From Minisyncoccia bacterium (GTDB lineage: Bacteria > Patescibacteriota > Minisyncoccia > Phycocordibacterales > UBA9973): a stretch of DNA of 64,000 bases. The notes beneath the pieces are model-generated. The model had not been told where the DNA came from. It saw only the letters and a program-made list of their open reading frames with translations, and ran no database searches. The position numbers and the translations under genes are program-made. The stretch spans positions 67,309-131,308 of the forward strand of contig JBAQFC010000001.1 in assembly GCA_049287045.1 (NCBI GenBank), in the 5' to 3' direction. Positions 19,465-45,023 of the stretch are shown piece by piece. Numbering within the stretch: position 1 is the stretch's first letter; every line of letters begins with the position of its first letter.

Positions 19465-19485
19465 CCCACATGTCGGACATGTGGG
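19465..19485. repeat. Palindromic repeat CCCACATGTCGGACATGTGGG. The same family occurs at 43177-43221 and 44983-45023.
   Basis: 21-nt perfect palindrome immediately after the pth stop, followed by AATTTTGTT. It may double as a terminator. Confidence 0.75.
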
Positions 19486-19492
19486 AATTTTG

Positions 19493-19521
19493 TTGACAAA
19501 CAAGTTGTGATTCTTTATCAT
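19493..19521 (+). promoter_or_regulatory. Putative sigma70 promoter TTGACA-17-TATCAT
   Basis: Sequence match only. It lies about 125 nt upstream of the ORF at 19646. Confidence 0.35.
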
Positions 19522-19645
19522 GGTACTTCTGTATTGTTCTTTCAAAAAAATTTTTGTTTTTAATAAATTTGTTTGCTCTCTTGAGGGATTTTAGATCTTT
19601 TAGGAGAATAAATAAATTTAATATAAACAAACTAAAAACTAAAAA

Positions 19646-20173
19646 ATGAAACTAAGACCACAAGCACACGAAAAAATACTCAGAGGAATTTATGCCAATA
19701 ATGGTACAAAATTAGACCTAAAAATGTATTTTGATGAAAAAATGGCAAGAAGAGTTGGTAAAGAGATTGCTGAATTTTCAAAAAAAATTAGTCTTTCAAA
19801 TCCAATCTTCAGAGTGTATCCAGTTAATGATATCCAGGGTAATTTGGATAAATTTGATACACAGTGCCATCCTTCACTTAAAAAAGAAGGGGTTAAGTTC
19901 TCTTTGGAAAGTAAAAATATTCCCGCGTACATTGAATTAATTAAGTGTAAGCCCACAGAGGAATATCAGAGTATTCTAAAAGAAATTAAGGAAAGGTCAT
20001 TTTTCCCTGCACCGTCACCATATGTTTATGGTTTGGGAATACAACACAAAAATATTATTGAAGAATCTTTTGGGTGTATTTTTTCTCCTGATAAAAAAAT
20101 ATATTTAAAGACGAGCACGGTGATTCGTGTTTTATGGGTATTGATTCTTGCAACAACTACAAAGCCACTTTGA
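19646..20173 (+). CDS. Hypothetical protein
   Basis: 175 aa ORF with no recognisable domain. Confidence 0.4.
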   Translation: MKLRPQAHEKILRGIYANNGTKLDLKMYFDEKMARRVGKEIAEFSKKISLSNPIFRVYPVNDIQGNLDKFDTQCHPSLKKEGVKFSLESKNIPAYIELIKCKPTEEYQSILKEIKERSFFPAPSPYVYGLGIQHKNIIEESFGCIFSPDKKIYLKTSTVIRVLWVLILATTTKPL

Positions 20174-20253
20174 TTAAAAGTTCAGGTCACTTTTCTTATA
20201 ATTACTGGTACGCTGTTGTTCGATGATCTTAGTAACATTAATTTTTATTATTT

Positions 20254-20282
20254 AACACCCCAAATATTGGGGTGTTTTTTAT
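20254..20282 (+). terminator. Rho-independent terminator
   Basis: ACACCCC-AAATATT-GGGGTGT followed by TTTTTT. Confidence 0.7.
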
Positions 20283-20311
20283 TTGACAAAATAGCATAAA
20301 TATGCTAGTAT
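20283..20311 (+). promoter_or_regulatory. Sigma70-type promoter TTGACA-17-TAGTAT
   Basis: It lies directly after the terminator. Its extended sequence TTATTTGACAAAAT..CATAAA.AT..GCTA.TAT is nearly identical to the promoter at 61666. Confidence 0.5.
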
Positions 20312-20400
20312 CATAACGAATAAAGTTGTTTTAAAAAAAGTTTTGATTGGTTTCAAAAGTGCCTGTGGGGAATTTTTGAAACCAATTTAAACTAATAAAA

Positions 20401-22224
20401 ATGGAAACAATGGAAATAGTAAAAACAAAAGTTATCTCAATTAATGAGAACTCAGAAATTCTGATACCTTATGATTACCAAGAACCAGTAATTGAAAAAT
20501 TAATGGATTTTGTACAGGAAAATGAAAATAAACCATTCGCAACAGGATTCGTGGTTATGCCAGGAGGTTCTGGTAAAACTGTAATTTTTGCTCATTTGGT
20601 TAAAAGATTAAACCATCGTGTTATTATTGCTTCTCCGACTTTGACTATTTCAGATCAAAATCTTGAAACAATCAGACAAGTAAACCCTGGTCTTAAAATT
20701 AGTGTTTACTATGATGGTGAAAGGGATTTAACAGGTGATGTAATTTTTATTACATATCATTCTCTTATGAGAGTTTTGGCTAGCGAATCAATACCTCGTG
20801 ATTTTGCGAGATATGTTTTATTTGATGAGGCGCATAGAGCGCTTTCACCAGCTAGGTCTAAAATTATTGAAAAGCTGAATGCAGTATGTATTGGTTTTAC
20901 AGCGACTGATAAATTTTCTGAACAAAAAAATGTTGAGAAAAATTTCAAAAATGAAATCTACCGGATGTCTTTAAAAGAGGCTATTGAAATGGGAATTTTG
21001 CTGCCGCTTCGTGGGTATATTGTAGAAACTCAAATTAATTTGAGAGGAGTTCAGTTATCACACAGAAATCAACTTAATGAAAAAGCAGCAGAAAAATATT
21101 TAAACATTGCAGCTAGAAATCAGGTTGCTAGAGATTTTTATTTAAAAAATTTCAAAGGTATACCTGCTGTAGCTTTTTGTATAAGTATTAATCATGCGGT
21201 AGAGCTTGCAAAGTATTTTTCTTTATCTGGTATCAAAGCAGTGGCTGTTCATTCTAAAATCACTAAAGACAAAAGACGTGAAATCTTTTCTGAATATAGA
21301 AAAGGTAATATAGATGTTTTGTGTTCGTGTGATTTATTAATTGAAGGCTGGAATTCTAAGCGTGTTACAGTCGAACTCAATCTAAGACCTACTTATTCTT
21401 GGGTTTTGGCTGAACAAAGAGCTTGCAGAGTAATTAGACCTTTTATTGGGAAAGAAGCTGGAATCATCGTGGAGTTTCAAGATATCTATAGTAAAAAAGA
21501 TCAACATATTTTAGTTCATCATTTATTTGGAAATCGAGAGTATACCCAAGGTGGTTACATTGCTGCACCTAGTAAAATAATGCGAGCAGAAAGGCAAATG
21601 CTGGAAAATAATAATCCAGTTTATGTTTTTGATAACCTAAAAGTTTCTTCTATTGTCCGTGAGGTTGTAAATTTAAAACCAATTATCTCTGATAAAGCCT
21701 TCGGGAACAAAGAGTTGATTAAAGAAATTTTACTTTCTCGCGCAGATGTAAACTACAACGATTTGAAAGTTAGAGCTTTTATGGATCTCGAGTTCAATCA
21801 TTGGCTTTTCAAAGGTAAAGGGCAGTCTCTTATGAAAAAACATCTTGGAATGTTATGGCAAGGTTCTAAAGAAGATTATGAACTTTTTATGTATGACATT
21901 TTGGGTGTGCATCTCTTTAATGAAACTTTTTCTTTGCTTGGAGAAGATATAGAAAATGTGGCTGAAACTTTTGACCCATTAAAAACGAGTATGGACAAGG
22001 AAGTAATACGCAGGTTTGTTAATTTAATCTATAACGACAAAGAGAAACGTATAATTAAATTATACTTTGGTTTTGAATCTGTTAATGGTGAAGGAATGGA
22101 ATTAGAAGAAATAGGAGAAATACTTTCCTTAACAAGAGAAAGAGTGAGGCAAATTAAAGAAAGAGGTATAAGAAATCTTAGAAGATACTTTAAAGAACAT
22201 AAAGTTGGTATTGTTTCAATTTAA
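20401..22224 (+). CDS. SF2 DEAH-type helicase fused to a C-terminal sigma70 region-4-like HTH
   Basis: Helicase motifs I (GGSGKT), II (DEAH), III (TAT) and VI (QRACRVIR). The last 70 aa, ...GMELEEIGEILSLTRERVRQIKERGIRNLRRY, match sigma70 region 4.2. Confidence 0.7.
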   Translation: METMEIVKTKVISINENSEILIPYDYQEPVIEKLMDFVQENENKPFATGFVVMPGGSGKTVIFAHLVKRLNHRVIIASPTLTISDQNLETIRQVNPGLKISVYYDGERDLTGDVIFITYHSLMRVLASESIPRDFARYVLFDEAHRALSPARSKIIEKLNAVCIGFTATDKFSEQKNVEKNFKNEIYRMSLKEAIEMGILLPLRGYIVETQINLRGVQLSHRNQLNEKAAEKYLNIAARNQVARDFYLKNFKGIPAVAFCISINHAVELAKYFSLSGIKAVAVHSKITKDKRREIFSEYRKGNIDVLCSCDLLIEGWNSKRVTVELNLRPTYSWVLAEQRACRVIRPFIGKEAGIIVEFQDIYSKKDQHILVHHLFGNREYTQGGYIAAPSKIMRAERQMLENNNPVYVFDNLKVSSIVREVVNLKPIISDKAFGNKELIKEILLSRADVNYNDLKVRAFMDLEFNHWLFKGKGQSLMKKHLGMLWQGSKEDYELFMYDILGVHLFNETFSLLGEDIENVAETFDPLKTSMDKEVIRRFVNLIYNDKEKRIIKLYFGFESVNGEGMELEEIGEILSLTRERVRQIKERGIRNLRRYFKEHKVGIVSI

Positions 22225-22227
22225 TCA

Positions 22228-22262
22228 AACACCCGTTCTGTAATACAGAACGGGTGTTTTTA
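22228..22262 (+). terminator. Rho-independent terminator
   Basis: ACACCCGTTCTG-TAAT-ACAGAACGGGTGT followed by TTTTTAT. Confidence 0.75.
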
Positions 22263-22380
22263 TATTTCCTTTACTGCTTCTATCAGAACACTTTTTTCAC
22301 CATTATGCACAGAGACTTTGTCGGAGAAAGCTATGCATTTTTCTGGAACCAAAATATCTTTTGAGACTGCAAATATTTTT
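22260..22380 (-). pseudogene. Orphan duplicate of the dnaE 3' end (the last 39 codons and stop, about 90% identical to 24337-24456)
   Basis: A 120-bp segment aligns base-for-base with the real dnaE terminus 2076 bp downstream. It has no start codon and abuts the REP hairpin at 22381. Confidence 0.7.
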
Positions 22381-23155
22381 CTGCGTTAGGTCTTGCCTAA
22401 CGCAGAACTTTGTAATTTAGCCAATCAAAAATTTCTTTCATAAAATACTCCTTTTTTGGAAAATAATTTGGGAAAGATTTTATATCTATTATTTTATTCT
22501 GTGGTCTTTTCTTTTCAATAAAATCTAGATAACTTGAGTAACTATAATTACTTAAATATATTATAGATTCTATTTTATTTTTTATTTCTTTTTCTTTCCA
22601 GTCTTTATCTATCAATTTTATTGGATTTAAATGAATATATGAAAATAAGTATTTTAAATAATTATCATTGTCTGCATGCTCAGATTTAAACTTTCCTTCA
22701 AAAAGTCCACCAGTTCTTTTGTATTTATTATTGTAGTACATAGCATAAGCTGTGCTTAATTTTTGCATAAATTTACTTATTCCACCTTCAATTTTTTCTG
22801 TTATTAAAATATGAAAATGATTCGGCATTAGACAATATGCACCAATGGCAACTAAATTATTTATTCTTTCAATTTCATAAATATCAAAATCTTTATTTCT
22901 TTTAAGATCATATAAATTAAAATTTTGATCTGTATTTGATATGAAAAGTAAACTTATAAAATAATTATAATCTTGTTTGTCTTGGAATATTCTTTGTTTA
23001 CTATTACCACGATTATATATATGATAATATTCGCCTTCAACAAAATTTACTTTGCGTATAGACATACAATAAATTTATCATAATCACTCCGCATTAGGCA
23101 ATTTACGTTAGGCAAGACCTAACGCAGCATTACGAACAGAGACCTAACGCAGACT
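22381..23155 (-). mobile_element. IS200/IS605-type or RAYT-like element: a Y1 HUH transposase gene bounded by inverted REP-type hairpins
   Basis: The left end is CTGCGTTAGG-TCTTG-CCTAACGCAG (22381-22405). The right end is its reverse complement CGTTAGG-CAAGA-CCTAACGCAG (23106-23127), with partial extra copies at 23089-23101 and 23140-23155. Confidence 0.7.
22397..23065 (-). CDS. IS200-like/REP-associated tyrosine (Y1, HUH) transposase
   Basis: GEYYHIYNRGNSKQRIF...AYCLMPNHFHILI (HuH motif), with the catalytic Tyr region in the C-terminal half. Confidence 0.8.
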   Translation of the reverse strand: MSIRKVNFVEGEYYHIYNRGNSKQRIFQDKQDYNYFISLLFISNTDQNFNLYDLKRNKDFDIYEIERINNLVAIGAYCLMPNHFHILITEKIEGGISKFMQKLSTAYAMYYNNKYKRTGGLFEGKFKSEHADNDNYLKYLFSYIHLNPIKLIDKDWKEKEIKNKIESIIYLSNYSYSSYLDFIEKKRPQNKIIDIKSFPNYFPKKEYFMKEIFDWLNYKVLR

Positions 23156-23211
23156 TATTAAAATAAAAAGCCGTTGTAATTTTACAACGGCTTTCAAAAA
23201 AATAATTTTTA

Positions 23212-24240
23212 TTAACCCTTTTTGAATAAACCAATAATGTCTTCTTTAGAAAGCACCCCTCTTGAGGATGGATCAATAAGAATGATTTTACCGGCATTCA
23301 ATTTTTCCCAAGCAAATTCGGCAACCAATTCCGGATATATCTTTAATAAATCCGGAATCAATTTTTTAAACTTCGTTTCCAGTTCACTTGGAGAACTTGA
23401 TACCTGCTGTGTCTTAATAGTTTTATTTTTAGGTACGACAGCAGGTTTATTGGTTAAAATTTTATTTGTTTTATTAATTACATTACCCTGAGGATAAACA
23501 GAAAGAATTTTTATAGTTTTTACACCTTCTTCTTTCTGAGTTTCATAACCGGCATCTTTTAATCTTTTTAATGCTTTTTCACAATCAGTTTTTTTCTTGA
23601 GGGCTAAAGAAAAACTTTCAGGATTTTTTCTGAAAGTTTTTCTGTAGACTGTATTAATTATAGGCAAACCCTTCAGTACTTTTTTTCGTATGTTATCTAT
23701 TTCTTGCAACCTCTTTTGAAGTTCATCTTCTATAGAATCTTCGCTTAAAAATAAAAAAATACTTAAGCCTTTCTGAAAACAAAAAAAATTATTTTCGCGC
23801 AGCATGGAAACTACATTTTCAATATTTTCTGAAGTAGCAAATTCTGCTCGCGCCATCGACATTTGTTTTTGAGAAGAAAAAAGTGTTTTATATCCAAATT
23901 TCATCTCCCCGGTTGATTTAGGCATCTTAATATCATCAATAATGATACTGTTGGCTTTTTCAACCAAGATAGTGCCTTCCTTTCTTTCTTGTTCGCTTTC
24001 ATTAAGGTTTGGTAAAAGAATATGGAGATGTTTCTCGTTTTCTTTGCAAGAAAGTATTTCATTTCTCATAAGAATTTCCTCTGCTACTTCAGCAGAATCT
24101 TTTGAATCAAATTCCATAACTAAATAATTTGGAATGAATTCATTTGTTAGCACTTTTGCTATGATTTTTGAAAGCAGGTTTGCAATTTTTGAATAAAATT
24201 CTCTGTACCTCGTTGGTACAATTTTTATTGGGTTTTCCAT
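23212..24240 (-). CDS. Hypothetical protein lying inside the segment bounded by the duplicated dnaE ends
   Basis: 342 aa ORF with no recognisable domain. Confidence 0.45.
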   Translation of the reverse strand: MENPIKIVPTRYREFYSKIANLLSKIIAKVLTNEFIPNYLVMEFDSKDSAEVAEEILMRNEILSCKENEKHLHILLPNLNESEQERKEGTILVEKANSIIIDDIKMPKSTGEMKFGYKTLFSSQKQMSMARAEFATSENIENVVSMLRENNFFCFQKGLSIFLFLSEDSIEDELQKRLQEIDNIRKKVLKGLPIINTVYRKTFRKNPESFSLALKKKTDCEKALKRLKDAGYETQKEEGVKTIKILSVYPQGNVINKTNKILTNKPAVVPKNKTIKTQQVSSSPSELETKFKKLIPDLLKIYPELVAEFAWEKLNAGKIILIDPSSRGVLSKEDIIGLFKKG

Positions 24241-24335
24241 TAGCTTTGGGTTTTAAGGGTTTATAGATTTTTTAAAAAACTTTTTTATTAATCTATCATA
24301 CAATACAGACTATGTCAATAGTATGTATTGTAAAT

Positions 24336-27300
24336 TTATATTTCCTTTACCGCTTCAATCAGAACACTTTTTTCACCATTTCGTACAGATACTTTACCCG
24401 AGAATGCTATACATTTTTCTGGAACTAAAATATCTTTTGAGACTGCAAATATTTTTGGAAAAGCGACAGCTTCTATCGAACCGGTAAAATCTGAAATTTT
24501 AATGAAGGCCATCTGGTCATTTTTCTTGGTTGTGACAAGCCTAGAGATTTCGATGATTCCGGCAAGCGTAACAGTCATATCATTTCCAATTCTTTCTAAT
24601 ACTTTTTTAATATTCATATCACGACTTTCTATTTTTTCACGTAGTCTGTCGAGGGGGTGTCCGGAAACATATAACCCTAGAAGTTCTTTTTCCCAAAGTA
24701 ATTTTTCTGCTTGAGTTGCAGCAGGTGCTGGTTTTAGAGTGAGTGCTTGGAATTCTGTTACTGGTAATGTACCAAAAAGTGAAACCTGATTGGCTGCTTG
24801 TTTGGAGTTCTCACGGATATAAGCAAGCATATCTTCTAGGTTCGCTAGAAGTAAACCACGTTCTCCAAAGTCATCCATGCTACCTGTTTTTATTAAAGCT
24901 TCCATGGATTTTTTGTTTAAATTTTTACTTTTGACTCTATCTAGGAAATCAGTGATAGATTTGAATTTACCATTATTCTTTCTCTCTTCAATCAAAGCTT
25001 CTCCTATTTCGGCGCCAAAATTTTTTATTGTATAAAGTCCGAAGCGAATTGTTTTGTCGTCAATACGAGTAAAACCTTGGAAACTTTCATTTACATGTGG
25101 AGGCAAGACTTTGATTCCCATTTTTTCACATTCACGAGTAATCTCAGAAATTTTCTCTACATCTCCGGATTCAGCTGTGAGTACTGCACACATGTATTCG
25201 ACAGGGAAGTTGGCTTTCATATAAGCTGTTTGGTAAGCGACGCGTCCGTAACTCGCTGAGTGTGCTTTGTTGAAACCATACGCAGCAAAAGGTTCGATTT
25301 GTTTCCAAAGTTCTTGAGCTTTTTTGAGTGGCCATTTACTGTGTTCCACACAACCCGTGATGAAGTGGTCTTTTTGTTTTTCCATTTCCTCAGGAATTTT
25401 TTTACCGACAGCCTTTCTAAACTTGTCGGCTTCACCCCAACTATACCCGGCGATATGAATAGAAATAAGCAAGAGGTCATCTTGGTAAACAAGCACACCA
25501 TAAGTTTGTTTTAGGATTGGCTCGAGCATCGGGTCGAGATATTTTACGAGACTCGGATTATGTTTACGCTCGATATAGAGAGGAATGAATTGAATAGGTC
25601 CTGGACGATATAGAGCCACCATCGCATTGATATCGTGTATAGAAGTTGGTTTTAATTGTTTCAAATAAGCAGTCATACCACCACCGTTCAATTGGAAAAG
25701 TCCCATTGTCTCACCACGAGCTAGCATTTCAAAAGTTTTTTTATCAGCTACGTCTACATAATCAAGATCAACTTTTATGTTGTGAACTTTTTCTGTAATC
25801 TTCACCGCATCAGCAAGGATTGCTAGGTTTTTAATACCAAGAAAATCAAATTTTGGCAGACCGACATCTTCGATCTGATACATATCATACTGAGTAATTA
25901 TTTCTCCACCTTTAGGGTCGTATTGAATCGGTGTGAATTCATAAAGTGGTCGGGGAGCGATGACGATACCTGCAGCATGGACAGAGACGTGTCTAACACA
26001 GCCTTCCATTTTTTTTGCCAAATCAATAATTTCTTTTGTGATAGGTTCTTTTTTGTATGCTTCTTTCAGTTCCGGTACGAGCTTCATTGCGTTGTCTATT
26101 GTCATAGCAGTACCTTGAGAGCCGAGCGGAATTAAACTAGACAATCGATCACCAATAGCATACTCGTAGCCAAGTGCTCGAGCGACGTCACGCACGGAAC
26201 CTTTGGCCATCATTGTTCCAAATGTTCCTATCTGAGCAACACGGTCTTTACCATATTTTTCTTTTGTGTAGGCAATCATTTCTGCTCTACGATTGTCGGC
26301 GAAGTCCATATCAATATCGGGTAGAGAGGGACGCTCTGGGTTCAAGAATCTTTCGAAAGGGAGTTTGTATTCAAGTGGATCGACGTTGGTAATACCGAGC
26401 AAGTATGTCGTCAGAGATCCGGCGACAGATCCTCGAATATTTGTGAAGATATCATTCTCACGAGCGAAACGTAAAAGATCTCCCACAACTAAAAAGTAAG
26501 TAGGGTAACCTTTTTGTTTAATAATACCGAGCTCATATTCAAGTCTGTCCACATACTCTTTGTTCTGTGGTAATTTTCTAAATTCAAAACCTTTATATGC
26601 CAATTCTTTCAAGACTTCATTCGGATCTTTGTCGCCTTCGATTTTAAATTCAGGGAAGTATGCTTTACCCAATTCTATTTCATAATCTTCACACAAGTCA
26701 GATACGAGCATAGTGTTACCGACTGCATCAGGTACATCTTTAAAATATTCTTTTGCTGTTTTCTCATCAATAAAAGAAAAATCATCATCAGAGAATTCAA
26801 ATTTTCCTGTATCTTTTCCTTCAGCACCTGTATTTACCTGGAGCAGGGTATGGTGCGCTTTATGATCATCTTTACATGGGTAGTGTGAGTCTTGAGTAGC
26901 AACGATAGGTATATCGAATTTTTTTCCTAATTTTACTAGTTCATTACGAAGCTCTTGGTCTCTCTCTATGTGTGGGTGAGATTGTACTTCGATAAAATAA
27001 TTTTTACCAAAAATATCAACATGTTCTTTTATTATTGCTTCAGTTTTTTCAACATTTCCAGCAAGTATGGCACGAGAAAGTTTACCTCCCATACATCCTG
27101 AAAGACAAATGATTCCTTCACTGTATTTTTTTAATAGTTCTTCATCAACACGGGGCTTGTAATAATATCCTTCGAGGTTTGCAATCGTGACGATACGCAT
27201 CAAATTTTTATACCCCTGCAAATTTTTTGCGAGCAGTATTAGGTGATATCTTTTATTATCGATGCCTGCTTCCTTGTCAGTTAATTTTCTTTCTGCAACA

Positions 27301-30285: not shown

Positions 30286-30286
30286 T

Positions 30287-37688: not shown

Positions 37689-37775
37689 TGACATATATAC
37701 TGTAGTATGCTATACTTTGTGCATAGTTTAATTATTTTGTTCATCTAAAAATAAGTCTCAAGGAGGGGCTTCAAA

Positions 37776-38279
37776 ATGAGAAAAAAAATTATTATCGCAA
37801 TCACCGCATGTGTTGCAGTTGCAGGCTTAGCACTACTTAATGTTTTTAATGCTAATGCTAATGCTGGTTCTGGCTCAGCTAAAACATCACATGTCAAAAA
37901 ACCTGTGCAAACAGGAACAGGAACAGGAATGATTTACCGAACCAATTCAGTAACTTACCCATTGGAAAATGGAAAGTTGTTAACTGTAAAGACAACCACA
38001 CCATATATAGATGTGGTGCTGCCGGCAAAGGACACATTCTTTGTTCAAAGAAAAGAAACCTTTAAAAAGGTTATGGCAAATTACACCGACTGCAAAGGCA
38101 CTCCACAGGAATATGAAAAAACTGTCGTGGGACCTGCGCAAATAAAGTTGGTTAAGCTTCGTTTAGCTGGGAGAACAATCACTGTTCCGTTACATAAACT
38201 TGAGAAAAAAGAATATGTGACATCGGACAAACCTGCACAGCTCTGTGAAGCGACCATAGTTACGCTGAAGTATAAATAA
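37776..38279 (+). CDS. Secreted hypothetical protein
   Basis: A strong SD sequence AAGGAGGGG lies 6 nt upstream. There is a signal peptide, and two Cys residues could form a disulfide. Confidence 0.5.
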   Translation: MRKKIIIAITACVAVAGLALLNVFNANANAGSGSAKTSHVKKPVQTGTGTGMIYRTNSVTYPLENGKLLTVKTTTPYIDVVLPAKDTFFVQRKETFKKVMANYTDCKGTPQEYEKTVVGPAQIKLVKLRLAGRTITVPLHKLEKKEYVTSDKPAQLCEATIVTLKYK

Positions 38280-38300
38280 TTTTTTTCAAAATTCATCTTG

Positions 38301-38337
38301 ATAGCACCTGAATAATTTTGGGTGCTATTTTTTTTGT
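38301..38337 (+). terminator. Rho-independent terminator
   Basis: ATAGCACC-N12-GGTGCTAT followed by TTTTTTTT. Confidence 0.7.
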
Positions 38338-38358
38338 TCCAAATTAGAAATTTATTAT

Positions 38359-38634
38359 TTATTGCACAGTGTCCGGTATTTTTATATCTGAGGAGTTTAC
38401 TGGTAGGTTTAATTTTTTTTCTACTAGCAGATATCTGGTAATATCGAGACCTTGGACATCTTCGCCTTTACTTTCGGTAAAAATTTTATTTACATTTTTT
38501 ACAATAAAACCCGTTGAATAAAAAAACAAGACTACTGTTATAACAAGAAACAAAAAAATAACACCTAAATAAATTAGATCGATACGTTCTATTTTTCTTG
38601 AAATTTTTGTAATGTTTGTGTCTTTCGGGTCCAT
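38359..38634 (-). CDS. Small single-TM protein, the last gene of the minus-strand pilus-assembly operon
   Basis: 91 aa with a central TM helix. Confidence 0.3.
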   Translation of the reverse strand: MDPKDTNITKISRKIERIDLIYLGVIFLFLVITVVLFFYSTGFIVKNVNKIFTESKGEDVQGLDITRYLLVEKKLNLPVNSSDIKIPDTVQ

Positions 38635-38638
38635 AATA

Positions 38639-39199
38639 TTATTGAGATTTTTCTGTTATTAATGTTGCTTTGTATGATATAGAACATGTTCCTGTCCATC
38701 CGGATTTTTCTTGTGATGAAATATTTAAACTTTCTATTTTAGTAAAATACGGCATGCTCTCGAATTTTTGTAAATAATTTGAAAAATTATGGACATTTGT
38801 CGTTAGACTATTTGAATATGCAATTGTTGAAAGAGGGAATGCTTCTGAAGCTGCCAGTGATACTGGTGTTTCAAAACGATAGGATTGCGACACTCCATTA
38901 CTAGATGCAAGGTTGTCTAGTGCATTTATAAATGTAGAAATATTATCTGAAGGTAGGAAAGCATTACTTATCAGAACATCATTATTTCCTACTATTTGTG
39001 CATCGTGTTTGATTACAGAAAGAAGCTCAGTTCTTTTTTTAAGTTCTGTCTCGAGTTTGTTATTGAAAACAATATTGTCAGTGACAGATTCTATCTCTCT
39101 TTTTATGAAAAAAATTATTAAAATAGTAACAAGAATGACACCCAGTGAAATAAGTGCGTTACGTCCGATATACATTAATAAATTTTTTGATGTAAACAT
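38639..39199 (-). CDS. PilO-like type IV pilus assembly protein
   Basis: 186 aa with an N-terminal TM followed by a coiled coil, positioned downstream of the pilM/N-like gene. Confidence 0.4.
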   Translation of the reverse strand: MFTSKNLLMYIGRNALISLGVILVTILIIFFIKREIESVTDNIVFNNKLETELKKRTELLSVIKHDAQIVGNNDVLISNAFLPSDNISTFINALDNLASSNGVSQSYRFETPVSLAASEAFPLSTIAYSNSLTTNVHNFSNYLQKFESMPYFTKIESLNISSQEKSGWTGTCSISYKATLITEKSQ

Positions 39200-39200
39200 A

Positions 39201-40658
39201 TTATTTATAGTACAACATACTTGGGTCTTTAAGATGAAATGAAATTGAAAATGGAATATCTGCTTTTTGTTCCAGGTTTGTAATAGGTAAATCTACCTCA
39301 GTAAAATATGTAGATGCTTGAAATGATTTTTTGAATTGATTAAGAGTATCACGATTTTTGGCAGTACCGGTTACAAACATCATATCACTTAATGATGGTG
39401 CTCCAAAACTCGATATTGTGATTCCTGGAATAACGCGAGAATTGATTTCGTCAATCAAGATACTCCAGTTGGGTGTGTTGGACAAAATAGATTGAGAGAC
39501 AAGGGTCAGAGAATTTACTTTTTTTATCAAGGATTCTTTTTGGATTATATCTGACGTAACAGGGAATGTAGAAAGAATAGAACTTTCATTTTGAATTATT
39601 TGTGATACTGAAAAAATATAAAGATAAGCTGCAATAAAAGTAAACAAAAAGAATAAAGATACTACTATCAACAAGTTGCGAGTAAGTTTTGTGAATGTTT
39701 TTATATTGTGGTATTTGTAAGTTTCGGCAATCCCAACAGGTAGTAAACTTATTTGATCGTCTTGTCCTTGTGAGATTTCTCCACGCACTACCGCACCGAC
39801 AGGGATGAGCCATTTGGATTGTGGTTCCAAGTTGGAAATATTTTCCAAATATTTTAAGAATTTGTCTCTGATTGTTGTTTCTGTAAAAGAAACTTCATGA
39901 ATTGTTTCTTTGAGTTCAGATTCGAGTGAATTCTTTATTTTGTTTGTCTCATCTTTCAAGAAATTTTCTTCTTTAATAAAGAGAGCTGGAAGCGTTCTGG
40001 AAAATTGAAGAATATTATCTTTCACTGTAAAGATGGTCACGCTGTCCTGATTCTTTTTTGTTAACAAACTCAATTCTCCTGGTTGTAGTTTTGCTGATCG
40101 AGCAATACTTGCGATATGAGATTCAAGAGCAAAAGTATTCACCCCGGCTTCTTCCAGAGTTTTGATATAGTCGTCTGCGATATTTTTAGGAATCGTAGAA
40201 ACGAGAACTTTGTTGGTATCACCAGAACCATCTGTATCCTCCCATCCTATATACACAGTGTCTCTCTTAAAAGGGAGTTGGAAATCAATCGCGAGGTCTA
40301 TTGCTTCTTCTAGATGTAAATTAGTGATAGTTTTAGGGAAAGGAAAAATATGAGAATAAATTTTGTCTTCTGGTATGGAAATAACAGCATAACTTCCGTA
40401 AAGTTTTTCTCTTTTCCAGATGTCCTTTATAGTTTTTTTGAAAAGTTCTTTATCTACTATCGCCCCATTTGATATTATATTTTCAGGTATTGATTCTTCT
40501 ATTAGAATAAGTTCGTTTTCTAAATTATCGGTAATACTTTTTAATATTTGTTTTGTTGCTTTTTTCTTTGGACGGAAATAAGCAATGCGTATATTTAAGT
40601 CGCTGATTTCAACTCCAGTAAAATACTTTTTCTTTGTTAGAAGATTTAAAATGTTCAC
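39201..40658 (-). CDS. PilM-like actin-fold domain fused to a TM plus PilN-like periplasmic region
   Basis: 485 aa. The N-terminal 320 aa are cytoplasmic (..FTGVEISDLNIRIAYF..), followed by a single TM (LLIVVSLFFLFTFIAAYLYIF) and a periplasmic tail. Confidence 0.45.
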   Translation of the reverse strand: MNILNLLTKKKYFTGVEISDLNIRIAYFRPKKKATKQILKSITDNLENELILIEESIPENIISNGAIVDKELFKKTIKDIWKREKLYGSYAVISIPEDKIYSHIFPFPKTITNLHLEEAIDLAIDFQLPFKRDTVYIGWEDTDGSGDTNKVLVSTIPKNIADDYIKTLEEAGVNTFALESHIASIARSAKLQPGELSLLTKKNQDSVTIFTVKDNILQFSRTLPALFIKEENFLKDETNKIKNSLESELKETIHEVSFTETTIRDKFLKYLENISNLEPQSKWLIPVGAVVRGEISQGQDDQISLLPVGIAETYKYHNIKTFTKLTRNLLIVVSLFFLFTFIAAYLYIFSVSQIIQNESSILSTFPVTSDIIQKESLIKKVNSLTLVSQSILSNTPNWSILIDEINSRVIPGITISSFGAPSLSDMMFVTGTAKNRDTLNQFKKSFQASTYFTEVDLPITNLEQKADIPFSISFHLKDPSMLYYK

Positions 40659-40896
40659 GATGTTTTTATTATATCAAGTTTTATATTTTGATGCTATATA
40701 ATTTTTTTTGATTCTGCATTTTCCCCTGTCCCCGGTTTAGGGGATTTCCCCTAAACCGGGTATCGGGGAAAGTGTCAGAGATACTACAAGTTATCCACTA
40801 TTAGGTTTACTTATTTGTTTTTTAAAAAAACTTCTGATATAATTTAGGCATAAAGGTTTTAATAGATTATTAATTTTATTTAAAAGTATAAATTTT

Positions 40897-41622
40897 ATGA
40901 ATATGAATTTTGTGAAGAAAAATAAAAATCGTGGTTTCACTTTGCTTGAGCTCTTGATCGTTATCGCGATCATCGCTATTTTGTCTGTTGCACTTGTTCT
41001 AGTTTTGAACCCAGCAGAAACTTTAAAGAAGGCTCGAGATGCTCAGCGTATCTCTGACCTTGCTACACTTAAAACTGCGATAGGACTTTATTTGACGAGT
41101 GTCTCCCCAGCATACTTGGGTGGAGTGGCTGATAACAATTTCTGTAAACCTACTCCAGCAACTGCATGGGGCGACGGTTCGTTCACATACAAGATTTCTT
41201 ACTCGACTCCTATTGCCGTCCCAATCACTGATGCAGTCGAAGATGGTAGTACTGGTGTTATCAAAAGACAAGCAGCTGTGAATCCAAGTCTTACAGATGG
41301 TACTGGTTGGATTCCTGTTAAGTTTGATAACATTACAGGAGGATCTCCAATTTCAAACATTCCTCTTGATCCAACAAACAATATCGTAAGCACTTTGAGT
41401 ACTGCTGCTTCTGTAAGAAGTGATGCTCTAGTCTATCGTTATGCATGTGCAATAACTCCACTTACTTTTGAAATCGATGCTCAACTAGAAAGTGATGCTT
41501 ATACTGTTACTGACGACAAAAGAGCAAGTGATGGTGGAAATAGTACACTTTATTATGAAGTTGGTACAAGTCTATCAATCATGACTGCTGCTTCTCCTTC
41601 TGCAGTTGGAACAGATATCTAA
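40897..41622 (+). CDS. Type IV pilin, paralogue 1
   Basis: Prepilin leader KNRG|FTLLELLIVIAIIAILS, with Glu at +5. Confidence 0.8.
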   Translation: MNMNFVKKNKNRGFTLLELLIVIAIIAILSVALVLVLNPAETLKKARDAQRISDLATLKTAIGLYLTSVSPAYLGGVADNNFCKPTPATAWGDGSFTYKISYSTPIAVPITDAVEDGSTGVIKRQAAVNPSLTDGTGWIPVKFDNITGGSPISNIPLDPTNNIVSTLSTAASVRSDALVYRYACAITPLTFEIDAQLESDAYTVTDDKRASDGGNSTLYYEVGTSLSIMTAASPSAVGTDI

Positions 41623-41643
41623 TCATTTAGCTAATAAAATAAA

Positions 41644-41676
41644 AACACCTCGGTTTTACACTGAGGTGTTTTTATT
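41644..41676 (+). terminator. Rho-independent terminator
   Basis: ACACCTCGG..CTGAGGTGT followed by TTTTTATTTT. Confidence 0.7.
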
Positions 41677-41768
41677 TTATTAGATTTGTCTCAAAAATAC
41701 TTGCTTGTTTTTTTTATATTTAGTAAAATTATATAAGCTATTATTATTTTATAAAAAACTATATATTT

Positions 41769-42449
41769 ATGAATATGAATTTTGTGAAGAAAAATAAAAA
41801 TCGTGGTTTCACTTTGCTTGAGCTTTTGATCGTTATCGCGATCATCGCTATTTTGTCTGTCGCACTCGTTCTAGTTTTGAACCCTGCAGAAACTTTGAAG
41901 AAGGCCCGAGATGCTCAGCGTATTTCTGACCTTAATACAATCAAAACTGCAATCGGACTTTATATGACGACAGTAGCACCGGTGTATTTAGGAGGAACAT
42001 CCTCCAACGCCGAATGTCAGGCTGTGACAGGTACTTGGGCAGGTACAAACAAGATTTTTTATTCTCTTCCTGTTGCTAGTGTTATTACTGACGTGGTATT
42101 GGATGGTGTTGGTGGTGCTCTAAAATTGCAGGTTGCAACTCCAAGTCTTACAGACAGTACTGGTTGGATTCCTGTTGATTTCGGTAATATTGCCGGAGGT
42201 TCTCCTATCTCAAAAATTCCTGTTGATCCAATCAACACTATTACTGCTCTAGGTGCAGTTGCAAGTACAGATCTAGTATATCGTTATGGATGTGCTCAAT
42301 CCCCATTAGCTTTCGAGATTGATGCTCAATTAGAAAGTATCGCTTACACTGTTACTACTGATATGAGAGCGACTGATGGTGGTAATAATGCAGGTGTATA
42401 TGAAGATGGTACTGACTTGTTGATATTTGGAACAGGCGCAGACTTCTAA
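41769..42449 (+). CDS. Type IV pilin, paralogue 2
   Basis: The first 60 aa are nearly identical to paralogue 1, and the C-terminal globular part diverges. Confidence 0.8.
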   Translation: MNMNFVKKNKNRGFTLLELLIVIAIIAILSVALVLVLNPAETLKKARDAQRISDLNTIKTAIGLYMTTVAPVYLGGTSSNAECQAVTGTWAGTNKIFYSLPVASVITDVVLDGVGGALKLQVATPSLTDSTGWIPVDFGNIAGGSPISKIPVDPINTITALGAVASTDLVYRYGCAQSPLAFEIDAQLESIAYTVTTDMRATDGGNNAGVYEDGTDLLIFGTGADF

Positions 42450-42471
42450 TTTTACTCAACTTTTTATTAAA

Positions 42472-42507
42472 AAATACCTCGGCTTTACGCTGAGGTATTT
42501 TTTTTAT
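42472..42507 (+). terminator. Rho-independent terminator, a homologue of the one at 41644
   Basis: AATACCTCGG..CTGAGGTATT followed by TTTTTTTT. Confidence 0.7.
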
Positions 42508-42520
42508 ATAATAGTTTACT

Positions 42521-43159
42521 ATGATACTAAATTTTATATTTTCACATTTAAATACGATTGCTTTAGGGGTATGGGTGGCATTTTTGGTGGTTATTGCTAT
42601 TCGTTTTTTCCGACCAGCTTGGTTGAGAAATATTTCTTATTCAAAACTTATTTTAGTTGCTATAGGATTAAATATTTTTTATGGTTTGTTTGTGAGTTGG
42701 GGACAATATCATGTATGGGCATCAGCCAATGATTTTACCAGATCACTTGTAAATTTACCTTTACCAAAAGAGGTGCCAATGTCTTATCTTTTTGAATGGA
42801 CAAGACCATTATTTCAGAATCATTTAGGATATTTCCTGTATTATATTATAGGACGTGTTTGGTTAAATATTTTCGTCTCATTTTTAATTTCAGGAGCAGT
42901 TTATCTTCTATTTAGAATTTGGAATTCTTACCGTGGTGGTTTTATAGAAAAAGGTCCTGAATTATTATTAATTTTGATGTTGATTTCTGGTTTTCCAGAT
43001 ATTATGATTTTAATTCCTCTTGGTTTTATTTTTGCAATTTTTTTGTTTACTTTTTACTATTTTAAAAAGGGTCACAAGAATGTAGAAATTGAACCAGCTT
43101 TTATTTTTGCAACTCTTTTCGCTTTATTATTTACAAATATTATTTTGAGTTTGATTTAG
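42521..43159 (+). CDS. Polytopic membrane protein of unknown function in the pilus locus
   Basis: 212 aa with about 6 TM helices. Confidence 0.4.
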   Translation: MILNFIFSHLNTIALGVWVAFLVVIAIRFFRPAWLRNISYSKLILVAIGLNIFYGLFVSWGQYHVWASANDFTRSLVNLPLPKEVPMSYLFEWTRPLFQNHLGYFLYYIIGRVWLNIFVSFLISGAVYLLFRIWNSYRGGFIEKGPELLLILMLISGFPDIMILIPLGFIFAIFLFTFYYFKKGHKNVEIEPAFIFATLFALLFTNIILSLI

Positions 43160-43176
43160 TAAAAGATGCCACTTGA

Positions 43177-43221
43177 CCCACATGTCCGACATGTGGGATC
43201 CCCACATGTCGGACATGTGGG
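43177..43221. repeat. Two tandem copies of the 21-nt palindromic repeat CCCACATGTC(C/G)GACATGTGGG immediately upstream of the pilB promoter
   Basis: Copies at 43177-43197 and 43201-43221, separated by 3 nt. Same family as 19465-19485. Confidence 0.75.
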
Positions 43222-43272
43222 TTTATGAAGGTTTGTCTTTTATATTTTGCTGTAAATTGGTATAATCTCTTC

Positions 43273-44982
43273 ATGCACATAAGCGAAGAAAAATTAAAGT
43301 CGATTTTACTTGAATCGGGTCTCGTCACTGATGACGATTTTAATTTAGCTCGCGAAGAATCTAAAAGAAGTGGTCAGACCATTTCTGATGTTTTGATCGG
43401 TAATGAAAAAATTACCGAAGATTACCTTGTAGAACTTTTAGCTCCATATTATGGTGTTCCGATTATCAATCTTAAAAAAGAACAGATTGATCCTGCTGCT
43501 TTGGAGTTGATTCCGGAAGTTTATGCAAAATCAAAGAACGTAATAATGTTTGGTTATGATAAAGAAAAGGGGATAATAAAGCTGGCAATGCTTGATCCTC
43601 TTGATTACGATACTATTGAATACATCCGAATAAAATTCAACGCTTGGGTGGAAGCATACCTGACGACTTACTCAAGTTTGCGTTATGGTTTTAGACAATA
43701 TAAACAAAAAATAAATGTAGGCTTCGAACAACTTATTTCAGAAAACATAGAACAGTCTCTTTCTCTTGCCAATGAAAAAGATTTATCAAAGACAGCGACT
43801 GCTGTCCCTATCGTCACTATTCTAGATAATATTATCGAGCAAGCAATAGCCTTGAATTCTTCTGATATTCACTTTGAGCCACTTGAAAATGCTCTTCTTG
43901 TTCGTTTTCGTATTGATGGTGTTATGTCAGAAATTTTAAGTTTGCCCCAAGCGATAGCTTCGATCCTCGTCGCTCGTGTAAAGATTCTCGGCAATCTGCA
44001 GATTGATGAACACCGCGCTCCTCAAGACGGACGTTTTAGTTTCAAAATGCAAGATGGCACAAACATCGATGTTCGCGTGAATATCATGCCTATTTTTCAT
44101 GGTGAAAAAGTTGAAATGAGATTACTAAAAAGTTCTATTCGCCCGCTCTCTTTAAAAGATCTTGGTTTTTCAGATATTGCGAGTAGAGTTCTCGGTGAAG
44201 AAATCAAAAAACCTCACGGAATGATTCTTGTGACTGGACCGACTGGTCACGGTAAGACTACGACTCTTTACGCAATATTACATATTTTAAATACACCTTT
44301 GGTGAACATTACGACGATTGAAGACCCTATCGAGTACGAGTTTCCAAGAGTAAATCAAACACAAGTAAATACAAAAACAGGAATCACTTTTGCAAACGGT
44401 CTGAGGTCTCTTCTTCGTCAAAATCCAGACATAATCATGATCGGAGAGATACGTGACAATGAAACAGTTGAGATTGCGGTTCAGGCTGCCTTGACGGGTC
44501 ACCTTGTTTTATCTTCACTCCATACCAATGATGCTCCGTCTGCTATTCCTCGTCTGCTCGACATGAAGGCTCCAGCCTTTTTACTTTCTTCCACTATCAA
44601 TGCGATCATCGCCCAGCGTCTTGTCAGAAAAATCTGCACACAATGTATCGGATCATATGAGATAACACCTGAAATAAATATTACCATAAGAGAACAGGTC
44701 AAAATTTCTGGAGGTGATGAAAAAAATATACCCAAGACTCTTTATAAAGGACGCGGTTGTAATGTTTGTGGAAATTCAGGATATTTTGGACAAATAGGAA
44801 TCTTTGAAGTTATGGTTATAACCGAAGGTATTCGTGAGATGATTATCGCTGGCGCAGAAGTATCAACATTGAGAAAGACAGCCATTGCCAATGGTATGAT
44901 TTCTATGTTTATGGATGGTTTGGATAAAGTTGAAAAGGGGATTACAACAATAGAAGAAATTACTCGTGTGGTTAATGAATAA
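43273..44982 (+). CDS. pilB: Type IV pilus assembly ATPase PilB (GspE family). The ORF opens at 43225.
   Basis: T2SSE N-domain, then Walker A GPTGHGKTT, a Walker B region and the C-terminal tetracysteine motif CTQC...CNVC. An extended -10 TGGTATAAT lies at 43258-43266. Confidence 0.9.
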   Translation: MHISEEKLKSILLESGLVTDDDFNLAREESKRSGQTISDVLIGNEKITEDYLVELLAPYYGVPIINLKKEQIDPAALELIPEVYAKSKNVIMFGYDKEKGIIKLAMLDPLDYDTIEYIRIKFNAWVEAYLTTYSSLRYGFRQYKQKINVGFEQLISENIEQSLSLANEKDLSKTATAVPIVTILDNIIEQAIALNSSDIHFEPLENALLVRFRIDGVMSEILSLPQAIASILVARVKILGNLQIDEHRAPQDGRFSFKMQDGTNIDVRVNIMPIFHGEKVEMRLLKSSIRPLSLKDLGFSDIASRVLGEEIKKPHGMILVTGPTGHGKTTTLYAILHILNTPLVNITTIEDPIEYEFPRVNQTQVNTKTGITFANGLRSLLRQNPDIIMIGEIRDNETVEIAVQAALTGHLVLSSLHTNDAPSAIPRLLDMKAPAFLLSSTINAIIAQRLVRKICTQCIGSYEITPEINITIREQVKISGGDEKNIPKTLYKGRGCNVCGNSGYFGQIGIFEVMVITEGIREMIIAGAEVSTLRKTAIANGMISMFMDGLDKVEKGITTIEEITRVVNE

Positions 44983-45023
44983 CCACATATCGGACATGAG
45001 GGAATCTCATGTCCGATATGTGG
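44983..45023. repeat. 41-nt perfect palindrome CCACATATCGGACATGAG-GGAAT-CTCATGTCCGATATGTGG, a variant of the CCCACATGTCSGACATGTGGG family
   Basis: It starts 1 nt after the pilB stop codon. Its half-sites resemble the 21-nt repeat. Confidence 0.7.

Follow-up and report, generated by a model that had tools for sequence, protein, structure and literature searches.

The palindromes that stand on both sides of pilB, a gene for a pilus ATPase, and behind pth raise the question of whether they serve the control of one gene or belong to a dispersed repeat family. The window in which they lie, i.e. the whole stretch of 64,000 nucleotides analysed here, contains the exact 21-mer CCCACATGTC[C/G]GACATGTGGG at 19465, 43177 and 43201, where the initial annotation had placed it (CCCACATGTCGGACATGTGGG at 19465-19485 and 43201-43221, CCCACATGTCCGACATGTGGG at 43177-43197). 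Dinucleotide-preserving shuffles give an expected number of 0.00 for this 21-mer, even with 3 mismatches permitted. Together with one variant doublet, a perfect 41-nt palindrome, the three exact copies make up the whole of this family (family A) in the 64 kb (Table 1). The variant, too, proved to be as first described: its 18-nt arms are 100% complementary around a 5-nt loop, and its first base directly follows the pilB stop codon (TAA, 44980-44982). What had escaped notice is that the tandem copies at 43177 and 43201 are mutual reverse complements, with 22-nt arms of 100% complementarity and a 3-nt loop, and therefore share the long-hairpin architecture of the variant. Both 43177-43221 and 44983-45023 are REPIN-like hairpins, with a spacer of just 3-5 nt. 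The consensus of the family is TT-CCCACATGTC-S-GACATGTGGG-AA, the base at -1 being T and that at +1 being A in 52/68 copies each; no GTAG or CGTC tag is present in the flanks of these 68 copies, which counts against an assignment as REP (repetitive extragenic palindrome). Each arm of the variant is 3 positions off the consensus 21-mer, yet the two arms still pair perfectly over 18 bp. Indeed, in all three diverged doublets of the window (44983, 40717 and 47581) the palindromy of the single unit is lost and the complementarity from arm to arm is kept, as would follow from evolution of the doublet as a unit.

Table 1. Repeats and neighbouring genes in the window (a dot marks features without strand)
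Feature	Position	Strand	Remarks
pth	18914-19462		gene call holds
REP family A singlet, core CCCACATGTC-G-GACATGTGGG	19465..19485	.	palindrome runs out to 19461-19489; 2 nt past the pth stop, 7 nt ahead of a near-consensus -35 (TTGACA, 19493); RNA fold -19.4 kcal/mol, z -5.5
RAYT paralogue, 222 aa	22397..23065	-	PNHFH (HUH) and YIHLNP (Tyr) motifs intact; flanked by family C palindromes CTGCGTTAGG-N5-CCTAACGCAG at 22381-22405 and 23103-23127
Doublet hairpin, second REP family (B-like; consensus CCCCTATCCCSGGGATAGGGG)	40717..40774	.	upstream of first pilin gene; RNA fold -49.4 kcal/mol
REP family A doublet (REPIN-like)	43176..43222	.	inverted 21-mers 3 nt apart, 43177-43197 with centre C and 43201-43221 with centre G; past the stop of ORF 42521-43159 and ahead of the pilB promoter; RNA fold -48.6 kcal/mol, z -8.9
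pilB (T4P/T2S ATPase; T2SSE + MshEN), 569 aa	43273..44982	+	bracketed by repeats
Diverged family A doublet (REPIN)	44983..45023	.	between pilB and pilC; RNA fold -32.6 kcal/mol
Diverged direct duplicate ACGACGTGTTATTAATGAATAA of the pilB 3' end (44962-44982, ACTCGTGTGGTTAATGAATAA)	45024..45045	+	resembles a target-site duplication flanking the REPIN
pilC (T2SSF)	45054-46262		gene call holds
Doublet hairpin, fourth REP family (D; CCAGYGCYTWAGRCGCTGG)	47581..47621	.	after Gly_rich gene; RNA fold -38.7 kcal/mol
Second RAYT-like gene, N-terminal part, GTG start	63830..64000	+	runs off the window end; family D palindromes upstream at 63685-63703 and 63767-63785

The reading frame of pilB starts at ATG 43273: 78 of 80 related loci align from residue 1 of this reading, and an NCBI protein of 569 aa is 100% identical to it. 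A start at 43225 was rejected. The TGnTATAAT box proposed as the pilB promoter element (43258-43266) is real, and a TG-extended -10-like box is found at the same spacing from the ATG in 8 of the 9 close relatives inspected. The minus-strand ORF 43140-43328 (62 aa, GTG start) had been regarded as spurious, and it is a product of the repeats, which appear in its translation as PHVRHVGIPHVGHVG.

The initial annotation saw in the bracketing elements either an operator pair for a dimeric regulator of pilB expression or an attenuator. The perfect 10-1-10 dyad symmetry would suit such sites, as would their placement, one doublet ending ~17 nt upstream of the pilB -35 position and another element following the stop codon directly. 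Specificity for pilB is nevertheless refuted by the comparison with 80 related pilB loci (57-82% aa identity, 482 kb), none of which contains the 21-mer even with up to 4 substitutions; moreover, the pilB promoter box is kept in relatives without any REP. In a sister population whose pilB is 92.8% identical in DNA, pilB and pilC are separated by only 6 nt, and the palindrome upstream of pilB is of another family. The same 21-mer adjoins pth, RAYT genes and dozens of unrelated genes in ~20 other genomes, an outcome that the initial annotation itself had named as speaking against pilB-specific regulation, and it is also found in frame within 7 non-RAYT ORFs. Neither conservation at orthologous promoters nor restriction to a regulon was found for the family-A motif across the 80 pilB loci and the sister lineage, and it is very improbable that the palindromes are regulator sites controlling pilB expression. 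The other possibility initially raised, a REP/MITE-like element with a preference for intergenic hairpin sites, finds support and can be sharpened to a REP/REPIN family that goes with a Y1 HUH transposase of the RAYT type.

Outside the window, the exact 21-mer was recovered at 70 further sites in 51 stretches from MAGs of ~20 Patescibacteria species, with about 6-13 exact copies in each of the related MAGs; it was present in no viral contig searched. According to a tally based on a crude ORF caller, 63/73 exact copies (86%) are intergenic, at a median distance of 28 nt to the adjacent 3' end vs 75 nt to the adjacent 5' end; by gene arrangement, 12 are convergent, 4 divergent and 32 tandem (n=73). 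Exact copies outnumber those with 1-4 mismatches by 73 to 12, in loci that were gathered by exact match and are biased to perfect copies. Family A shows two marks of a REP, being a short GC-rich repeat far above chance and mostly extragenic near 3' ends. Copies in frame within the 7 non-RAYT protein genes use all three frames and add 7 residues (PHMSDMW, PTCPTCG or PHVGHVG); no such coding insertion occurs within the window. Furthermore, 21% of family-A copies form the apex of longer, locus-specific stems, vs 0.2% in controls. Several of these apex copies carry A/T tracts like those of bidirectional terminators.

The nearness to 3' ends, and the stability of GC-rich hairpins in an AT-rich genome, would also be found if the palindromes were ordinary intrinsic terminators sharing their stem sequence by chance. 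Exact identity over 21 nt is unexpected in that case among ~20 species, some of which are only ~65-70% identical to the window in coding DNA, and copies occur inside ORFs and on both sides of RAYT genes. In addition, the typical terminators of this genome are of a different make (A-tract, short stem, T-tract; e.g. 41631-41683 and 20254-20276), whereas a sufficient T-run on the sense strand is missing at all three sites: terminator scans called none of them on the + strand and only the minus-strand reading of 44983-45023. This makes chance-sharing terminators very improbable.

The link to a transposase comes from the relatives. In at least 8 species (loci L003, L015, L029, L032, L036, L041, L043 and L047) a family-A REP is situated on both sides of one and the same ~231-aa gene, 20-45 nt upstream of it and at or just past its stop. 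The protein contains the motifs PNHFH (HUH) and YIHLNP (Tyr), both invariant or nearly so. It matches the NCBIfam model REP_Tyr_transpos with E ~1e-11 at 42-46 bits, under the curated 80-bit cut-off, and Pfam Y1_Tnp at a borderline level; several members of the family are labelled 'REP element-mobilizing transposase RayT' by JGI. In a Foldseek search of the PDB, its AlphaFold model (pLDDT 88.7) came closest to 4ER8 (E 2.8e-7), in which E. coli TnpA-REP is in complex with a REP hairpin; the TnpA proteins of ISDra2 and IS608 ranked next. Despite the sub-cut-off profile score, the protein belongs to the Y1 HUH endonucleases of TnpA-REP type. As for other REP subfamilies, 7 of the 8 fetched have a RAYT flanked by its own REP, with a flank on just one side in L136 and L137; the immediate flanks of the L134 RAYT hold other palindromes. 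No family-A RAYT was found in the 64-kb window, both RAYT paralogues there being flanked by other REP families, and the single RAYT observed close to copies of family A in the sister MAG JAVHNX01 is of the family-B type; the family-A copies of the window may therefore be orphans. In L041 the gene order is pth - REP-A - RAYT-A - REP - next gene where the window has pth - REP-A, so that the orthologue of the 19465 copy flanks a family-A RAYT gene on its upstream side. The pth copy is probably a flank left over from an ancestral locus of a family-A RAYT.

This association also bears on a possible role as DNA uptake sequence (DUS) for the adjacent type IV pilus/competence machinery, which the proximity to pilin, pilB and pilC genes could suggest. 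A parallel exists in Neisseria, where inverted DUS pairs form terminator-like hairpins. The density of DUS/USS is roughly 1 per kb, and that of family A is far too low in comparison: the 64 kb hold 4 copies, and no MAG has more than 13 exact ones. The motif is absent in close relatives with the same pilus genes and co-varies with the transposase, not with the pilins, which leaves an uptake function extremely improbable.

Comparing the window with its sister lineages, it becomes apparent that the occupied sites vary. In the sister population mentioned above (L140-L143), the pilB-pilC junction reads ...GTTAATGAATAA|aattttATG; the window holds the 41-nt hairpin and the duplicated pilB end at this point, and L140-L143 and other relatives are empty, the relatives having one copy of the pilB end, then 5-10 nt, then the pilC ATG. 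Upstream of pilB, L140 carries a different REP family in place of the family A doublet, and after the Gly_rich gene a family-E REP has taken over part of the family D doublet (47581). In L010, the orthologue of the 19465 copy has its central base flipped to C. REP sites are polymorphic, filled or empty, between sister lineages; the same REP flanks a RAYT gene in relatives and its copies lie at gene 3' ends and in intergenic regions. The family A copies are non-autonomous mobile DNA.

Very probably, then, the palindromes of the window are a family A REP and two inverted REPIN-like doublets, i.e. RAYT-linked mobile repeats whose effect on pilB, if any, is incidental. Based on homology, the RAYT would recognise the REP hairpin in single-stranded DNA, cut and rejoin it, and thereby insert the repeat at new sites or swap it for the repeat at an already occupied hairpin site. 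The copy between pilB and pilC would be a lineage-specific insertion accompanied by a target duplication of ~21 nt. Any effect on pilB would come from the hairpin structure, not from a pilB-specific regulator, and might consist in blocking read-through from upstream or in protecting the 3' end of the pilB mRNA.

Compatible with RAYT-linked mobile repeats is an exaptation, in which the elements are REPs by origin and a strong hairpin, of whichever family, is kept by selection at these intergenic sites. Upstream of pilB such a hairpin could insulate or terminate transcription; in the gap between pilB and pilC it could stabilise the 3' end or decouple the two genes. Two sites, upstream of pilB and after Gly_rich, indeed hold hairpins of different families in the window and in L140, the folding energies in the window range from -19 to -49 kcal/mol, and the enrichment of copies capping longer stems, several with terminator-like A/T tracts, points the same way. 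E. coli REPs are known to stabilise upstream mRNA (cf. PMC3733652), which provides a precedent. On the other hand, GC-rich palindromes are missing from the 300 nt upstream and the 200 nt downstream of pilB in most of the 34 closest loci inspected, the closest sister is without the pilB-pilC hairpin, and no sense-strand U-tract passing the terminator scan exists at any of the three sites. Repeated occupancy is equally consistent with targeting of REPs into REPs. We regard such an exaptation as unlikely, although it deserves some weight.

Besides family A, the window contains three further REP families and two RAYT paralogues (Table 1), and the RAYT genes themselves contain repeats. In L018, family B has copies on the flanks of the RAYT gene and also embedded within it. 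Altogether, in 10 REP subfamilies an in-frame copy of the own REP is found inside the RAYT ORF, just after the HUH motif, and co-varies with the REPs flanking the same RAYT; the embedded REP is absent from the 222-aa paralogue of the window. It is quite possible, if somewhat short of probable, that this RAYT clade (>4000 protein clusters), with its own REP embedded in a disordered loop after the HUH strand and tracking the flanking and genome-wide REPs in at least 10 subfamilies, reflects active replacement or homogenisation, i.e. RAYT-driven concerted evolution, and/or a functional embedded hairpin. The embedded hairpin would serve in the self-regulation of RAYT expression or as a protected master copy. 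Replacement by the active family would explain why sister genomes differ in the REP family at a given intergenic site, why the central base is flipped at an orthologous site and why nearly all copies are exact.

For annotation, the palindromes of the window should be entered as repeat elements; they tell nothing specific about pilus regulation, and a false lead is removed. The repeats account for spurious ORFs, such as 43140-43328 and the 'MSDMW...' start extensions in relatives, and for contig breaks in related assemblies. The family A REP is tied to a hairpin-cutting transposase in many ultra-small Patescibacteria. To our knowledge, work on REP-RAYT systems has dealt almost exclusively with Proteobacteria and has never directly demonstrated the way in which RAYTs move or maintain REPs. 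Compact REP-RAYT systems in tiny genomes offer handles on the RAYT mechanism through filled and empty sites, an apparent target duplication and REP-by-REP replacement, and the in-frame RAYT-embedded REP leaves a protein-level covariation signature as a further one. The literature searched contains no account of REP/RAYT in Patescibacteria or of a REP embedded in a RAYT, an absence that is not proof of novelty.

Family A was compared with the E. coli REP/BIME and TnpA-REP (RAYT) system and the GTAG/CGTC REPtrons (PDB 4ER8; PMC3479197; PMC3733652). Like these, it is short, GC-rich, mostly extragenic, near 3' ends and enriched between tandem or convergent genes; as in REPtrons, it stands on both sides of a Y1 HUH/Tyr transposase gene, for which 4ER8 is the best structural match. 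REP dimers with 1-5 bp spacing, intragenic copies, multi-species families and several families per genome have been described (PMC3733652). Whereas most described REPs carry a GTAG or CGTC tag (PMC3733652), family A has TT/AA flanks without such a tag and is a perfect 10-1-10 palindrome. Unlike E. coli TnpA-REP, the RAYT is ~231 aa long with a C-terminal extension, falls below the NCBIfam cut-off, resides in Patescibacteria, and contains in its ORF an in-frame copy of its own REP.

With the Pseudomonas REPIN-RAYT system (Bertels & Rainey; PMC3116915, PMC5581495) family A shares inverted doublets that form a long hairpin evolving as a unit, one dominant 'master' sequence with few mutants (as far as the sampling by exact match can be compared), a RAYT in a conserved neighbourhood, here the pth locus, and one REP family per RAYT paralogue. 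It differs by a spacer of 3-5 nt instead of tens of nt, by copies that are mostly singlets in the relatives, by about ten copies per genome vs hundreds, and by one 21-mer common to RAYTs that are just ~60-80% identical, across named candidate phyla. To judge from the structural model, the fold, the HUH/Tyr chemistry and the recognition of a subterminal DNA hairpin are probably shared with IS200/IS605 elements (IS608, ISDra2 TnpA); unlike in these, the REPs spread without the gene, and the RAYT genes examined are single among housekeeping genes, without tnpB. IS200/IS605-type transposition makes no target duplication, and the duplication of ~21 nt at one insertion here counts against the reading as RAYT-linked mobile repeats. 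Finally, Rickettsia palindromic elements (RPE) resemble family A in having copies in frame inside protein genes and in their reduced-genome hosts with little intergenic space. RPE are 100-150 bp long and have, as far as we know, no cognate transposase, whereas family A is 21-25 nt in length and tied to a RAYT.

Direct reading of the window confirmed the palindromes described in the initial annotation, both in sequence and in coordinates, and its gene calls around them were found to be right (see the table). The exact 21-mer, CCCACATGTC[C/G]GACATGTGGG (family A), is accompanied by a single further match when up to 3 mismatches are allowed, namely 44982-45002, the left arm of the 41-nt palindrome behind pilB; the expectation from the shuffled window with 3 mismatches allowed is 0.00. 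The tandem copies upstream of pilB differ only in their central base, and are therefore mutual reverse complements; folded together, they give a hairpin with a 22-bp stem and a 3-nt loop, an architecture shared with the element at 44983, whose 18-nt arms are 100% complementary around a 5-nt loop. In the three diverged doublets of the window (44983, 40717, 47581) this arm-to-arm complementarity is kept though single units are no longer palindromic. The hairpins at 19465, 43176 and 44983 have computed stabilities of -19.4, -48.6 and -32.6 kcal/mol (z-scores from -5.5 to -8.9), in a window of ~31-42% G+C. Scanned at Rfam gathering thresholds, the whole window yielded tRNA-Gln only and no known RNA family over the hairpins.

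The palindromes had been proposed to act as an operator pair or attenuator of pilB or, alternatively, to be a REP/MITE-like element (REP, repetitive extragenic palindrome). The operator reading is refuted by the absence of the family-A motif, with up to 4 substitutions, from all 80 related metagenome pilB loci compared (57-82% amino-acid identity, 482 kb), and by the spread of the 21-mer over about 20 metagenome-assembled genomes (MAGs). The start of pilB at ATG 43273 is matched from residue 1 in all but 2 of these 80 loci, and the 569-aa NCBI PilB protein MFZ2205083.1, annotated as from a 'Minisyncoccia bacterium' MAG (Patescibacteria), is 100% identical to the reading from this codon. Of nine close relatives inspected (among L052-L065), eight share with the window (43258-43275) a TG-extended -10-like box ~6-10 nt before the ATG, and have this box without any REP; its nearness to the start suggests that the pilB mRNA is leaderless or nearly so. 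In close relatives, 5-10 nt separate the pilB stop from the pilC ATG. None of the three family-A sites passes a sense-strand scan for a hairpin followed by a T-tract. Any effect on pilB would stem from hairpin structure, for example a block to read-through or 3'-end protection, and pilB expression in the relatives does without it. The operator, DNA-uptake-sequence and plain-terminator readings are rejected, and the REP-like one is supported and sharpened: family A is a REP/REPIN family (REPIN, an inverted REP doublet) of a RAYT clade, i.e. of REP-associated tyrosine transposases, widespread in Patescibacteria. Downstream of the pilus gene cluster, a single ORF of 4186 aa occupies 49042-61602.

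In a scan of prokaryotic genomes, one for each species, exact matches to the 21-mer came from 51 DNA stretches of ~20 Patescibacteria MAGs, with labels including Paceibacterota, Nomurabacteria, Zambryskibacteria, Azambacteria, Magasanikiibacteriota and 'Saccharibacteria', and with up to 11-13 exact copies in a single MAG; one contig lies in a 'Bacteroidetes' bin (L019) and may be misbinned. The viral contigs scanned contain no exact copy, and a phage vector is not supported. Placement was counted on the fetched stretches pooled with the window, with genes from a crude ORF caller: 63 of 73 exact copies are intergenic, with neighbours in convergent (12), divergent (4) or tandem (32) orientation, and adjacent 3' ends are nearer (median 28 nt) than adjacent 5' ends (median 75 nt). 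The consensus with flanks is TT-21mer-AA, and 21% of copies, vs. 0.2% of control positions, form the apex of a longer locus-specific stem (at least 5 extra bp). Both orientations are about equally common: 39 copies have a central G and 29 a central C. Only 12 copies with 1-4 mismatches accompany the 73 exact ones, a spectrum biased by the retrieval of loci through exact matches. In several MAGs (L011 580, L019 1024, L040 3810; L004 37, 1804, 1957; L045 316-416) the REP lies within a larger repeated unit, a possible composite mobile element that also contains a terminator-like hairpin (aaaatagcccgacaagc...gcttgtcgggctattt) and another palindrome, ttaacaaacggccgtttgttaa.

Eight species (L003, L015, L029, L032, L036, L041, L043, L047) have the 21-mer on both sides of one gene, 20-45 nt before its start and again at its stop codon or just behind; this gene encodes a protein of ~231 aa with invariant or nearly invariant PNHFH (HUH) and YIHLNP (Tyr) motifs. 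Several members are named 'REP element-mobilizing transposase RayT' by JGI; the match to the NCBIfam 'REP-associated tyrosine transposase' (E ~1e-11) is below the curated cut-off, and that to Pfam Y1_Tnp is borderline. Against the PDB, a single-sequence phmmer search returned only a spurious TRPV4 ankyrin, and a profile search reached 4ER8 weakly (E 0.26). The relation was resolved through structure prediction: the AlphaFold model (pLDDT 88.7) has a predicted HUH/Tyr fold, with 4ER8, the complex of E. coli TnpA-REP with a REP hairpin, as best Foldseek match in the PDB (E 2.8e-7), followed by ISDra2 and IS608 TnpA. The 64-kb window contains no family-A RAYT; its two paralogues are associated with palindromes of families C and D, and family B flanks a RAYT in L018. 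In L041 (Nomurabacteria), which is syntenic, the order is pth, REP-A, RAYT-A, REP, next gene; from this synteny, the pth copy of the window is best read as a flank left over from an ancestral family-A RAYT locus. A ~4-kb segment of the window (20281-24334), located where L041 carries its RAYT, is missing from the orthologous region of JAVHNX01 (L010), which aligns to 19209-20280 and resumes at 24335; it holds a helicase fusion, an ORF and the minus-strand RAYT paralogue, and was either inserted here or lost by the sister.

Feature positions in the window and in fetched DNA stretches from other genomes or metagenomes (L-numbers)
Feature	Sequence	Position	Strand	Remark
pth	window	18914-19462
Family-A 21-mer	window	19465-19485
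ResIII/DEAD helicase	window	20401-22224		fused to sigma-70 region 4
RAYT paralogue	window	22397-23065	minus	48-51% identical to family-A RAYTs; family-C palindromes at 22381, 23103
ORF in ~4-kb segment	window	23212-24240
Family-B-like doublet	window	40717-40774
Pilin-like genes (two)	window	40897-41622, 41769-42449
Family-A 21-mers (tandem)	window	43177-43197, 43201-43221
pilB	window	ATG 43273, end 44982
41-nt palindrome	window	44983-45023
pilC	window	45054-46262
Gly_rich gene	window	46264-47574
Second RAYT paralogue	window	from 63830		cut by window end; family-D palindromes upstream
REP embedded in RAYT gene	L029	1684-1704
REP embedded in RAYT gene	L036	2751-2771
REP embedded in RAYT gene	L032	5194-5214
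REP embedded in RAYT gene	L018	~949-970
REP embedded in RAYT gene	L132-L139
In-frame family-A copy	L022	3907
In-frame family-A copy	L025	2236
In-frame family-A copy	L028	6063
In-frame family-A copy	L031	680
In-frame family-A copy	L039	1994
In-frame family-A copy	L044	3280
In-frame family-A copy	L048	2401

The RAYT ORF itself contains an in-frame REP copy directly after the HUH strand (...HFHIYLT-IN-PHMSDMW-...), as an insert of 10-16 residues that is missing in the window paralogue and in those of L034 and L050 and that forms, in the AlphaFold model, the low-confidence loop joining strand 83-90 to helix 105-125. Among the closest 120 of 4084 homologue clusters (E <= 1e-10), 108 of the 118 PNHFH-bearing homologues have an x-x-S-D-x-x motif within 30 residues after PNHFH, in variants such as PHMSDMW, SHQSDWW, SHKSDLW and PRKSDFR. 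Its residues co-vary as a palindrome centred on GTC-G-GAC demands (M..M/I, Q..W, K..L/F, R..L, T..V, and further H..W/C, R..R, P..G). Fully palindrome-compatible motifs are present in 91 of these 108 homologues and make up 14 of 27 distinct motifs, vs. 3.3 on average and at most 9 in 5000 shuffles. At the DNA level, eight further RAYT subfamilies were fetched (L132-L139), and in seven (L132, L133, L135-L139) the embedded palindrome, or at least one arm, matches the REPs flanking that gene, on one side only in L136 and L137, with an imperfect embedded copy in L136 and with an unrelated REP of 31-37 nt in L139. The immediate flanks in L134 contain other palindromes, and an embedded-type copy lies 843 nt downstream. 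Including families A and B, ten subfamilies are covered, in most of which the embedded copy matches or nearly matches the flanking REPs. In the literature searched, neither a REP embedded in a RAYT gene nor a REP/RAYT system of Patescibacteria was found described. Seven ORFs other than RAYT genes also contain an exact family-A 21-mer in frame; all three reading frames are represented, and the added residues are PTCPTCG, (A/S)HMSDMWE or PHVGHVG. The orthologues L025 and L044 share the position of the insert.

Comparison with a sister population (L140-L143), 92.8% identical to the window in pilB DNA, reveals both filled and empty sites. The pilB-pilC junction reads ...ACTCGTGTGGTTAATGAATAA directly followed by aattttATG in the sister and ...ACTCGTGTGGTTAATGAATAA, the 41-nt hairpin, ACGACGTGTTATTAATGAATAA and taatttttATG in the window, which makes the hairpin a lineage-specific insertion. 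A diverged direct duplication of ~21 nt of target borders it (45024-45045 vs. the pilB 3' end, 44962-44982; 18 of 22 aligned positions identical); by eye, no such duplication was seen at the other two family-A sites of the window. IS200-type elements make no target duplications, and their chemistry does not account for this one, which may have arisen by replication slippage at a stalled palindrome. At the 5' end of pilB, L140 and the window become homologous exactly at the ATG; upstream of it, L140 (1-45) has a family-E doublet, CCCTAAGTCAGACATAGGGG-aaat-CCCCTATGTCTGACTTAGGGG, vs. family A at 43176-43222; four assemblies break inside this family-E doublet, and the window has no copy of family E (CCCCTATGTCTGACTTAGGGG). 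Behind the Gly_rich gene lie a family-D doublet in the window (47581-47621) and, in L140 (~4290-4330), a family-E singlet joined to the right-hand remnant of a D element. Different families thus occupy the same intergenic sites in sister lineages, and the E/D fusion suggests that one REP can replace another in place. At the pth site, the JAVHNX01 orthologue (L010 257-277) is identical to the window copy except for its central unpaired base (G vs. C), within flanks ~96% identical, a pattern compatible with the hairpin having been inverted or replaced in place.

By analogy with TnpA-REP and the IS200/IS605 enzymes (PMC3479197, PMC6006769), the RAYT would recognise the REP hairpin in single-stranded DNA and would cut and rejoin at it, so that repeats spread or are replaced. 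As a finding on this window, family A is fairly ordinary; worth following are the embedded, co-varying REP and the same-site replacement of families. The REP-RAYT-REP layout of family A matches the REPtron, the arrangement of a RAYT flanked by REPs in REP/RAYT systems (PMC3733652). Family A differs from textbook REPs in being without a GTAG or CGTC tag, in a doublet spacer of only 3-5 nt, in the conservation of one 21-mer across many species and in the cognate REP embedded in the RAYT gene. Its in-frame copies within protein genes recall intragenic REPs (PMC3733652) and resemble the Rickettsia palindromic elements (RPEs).
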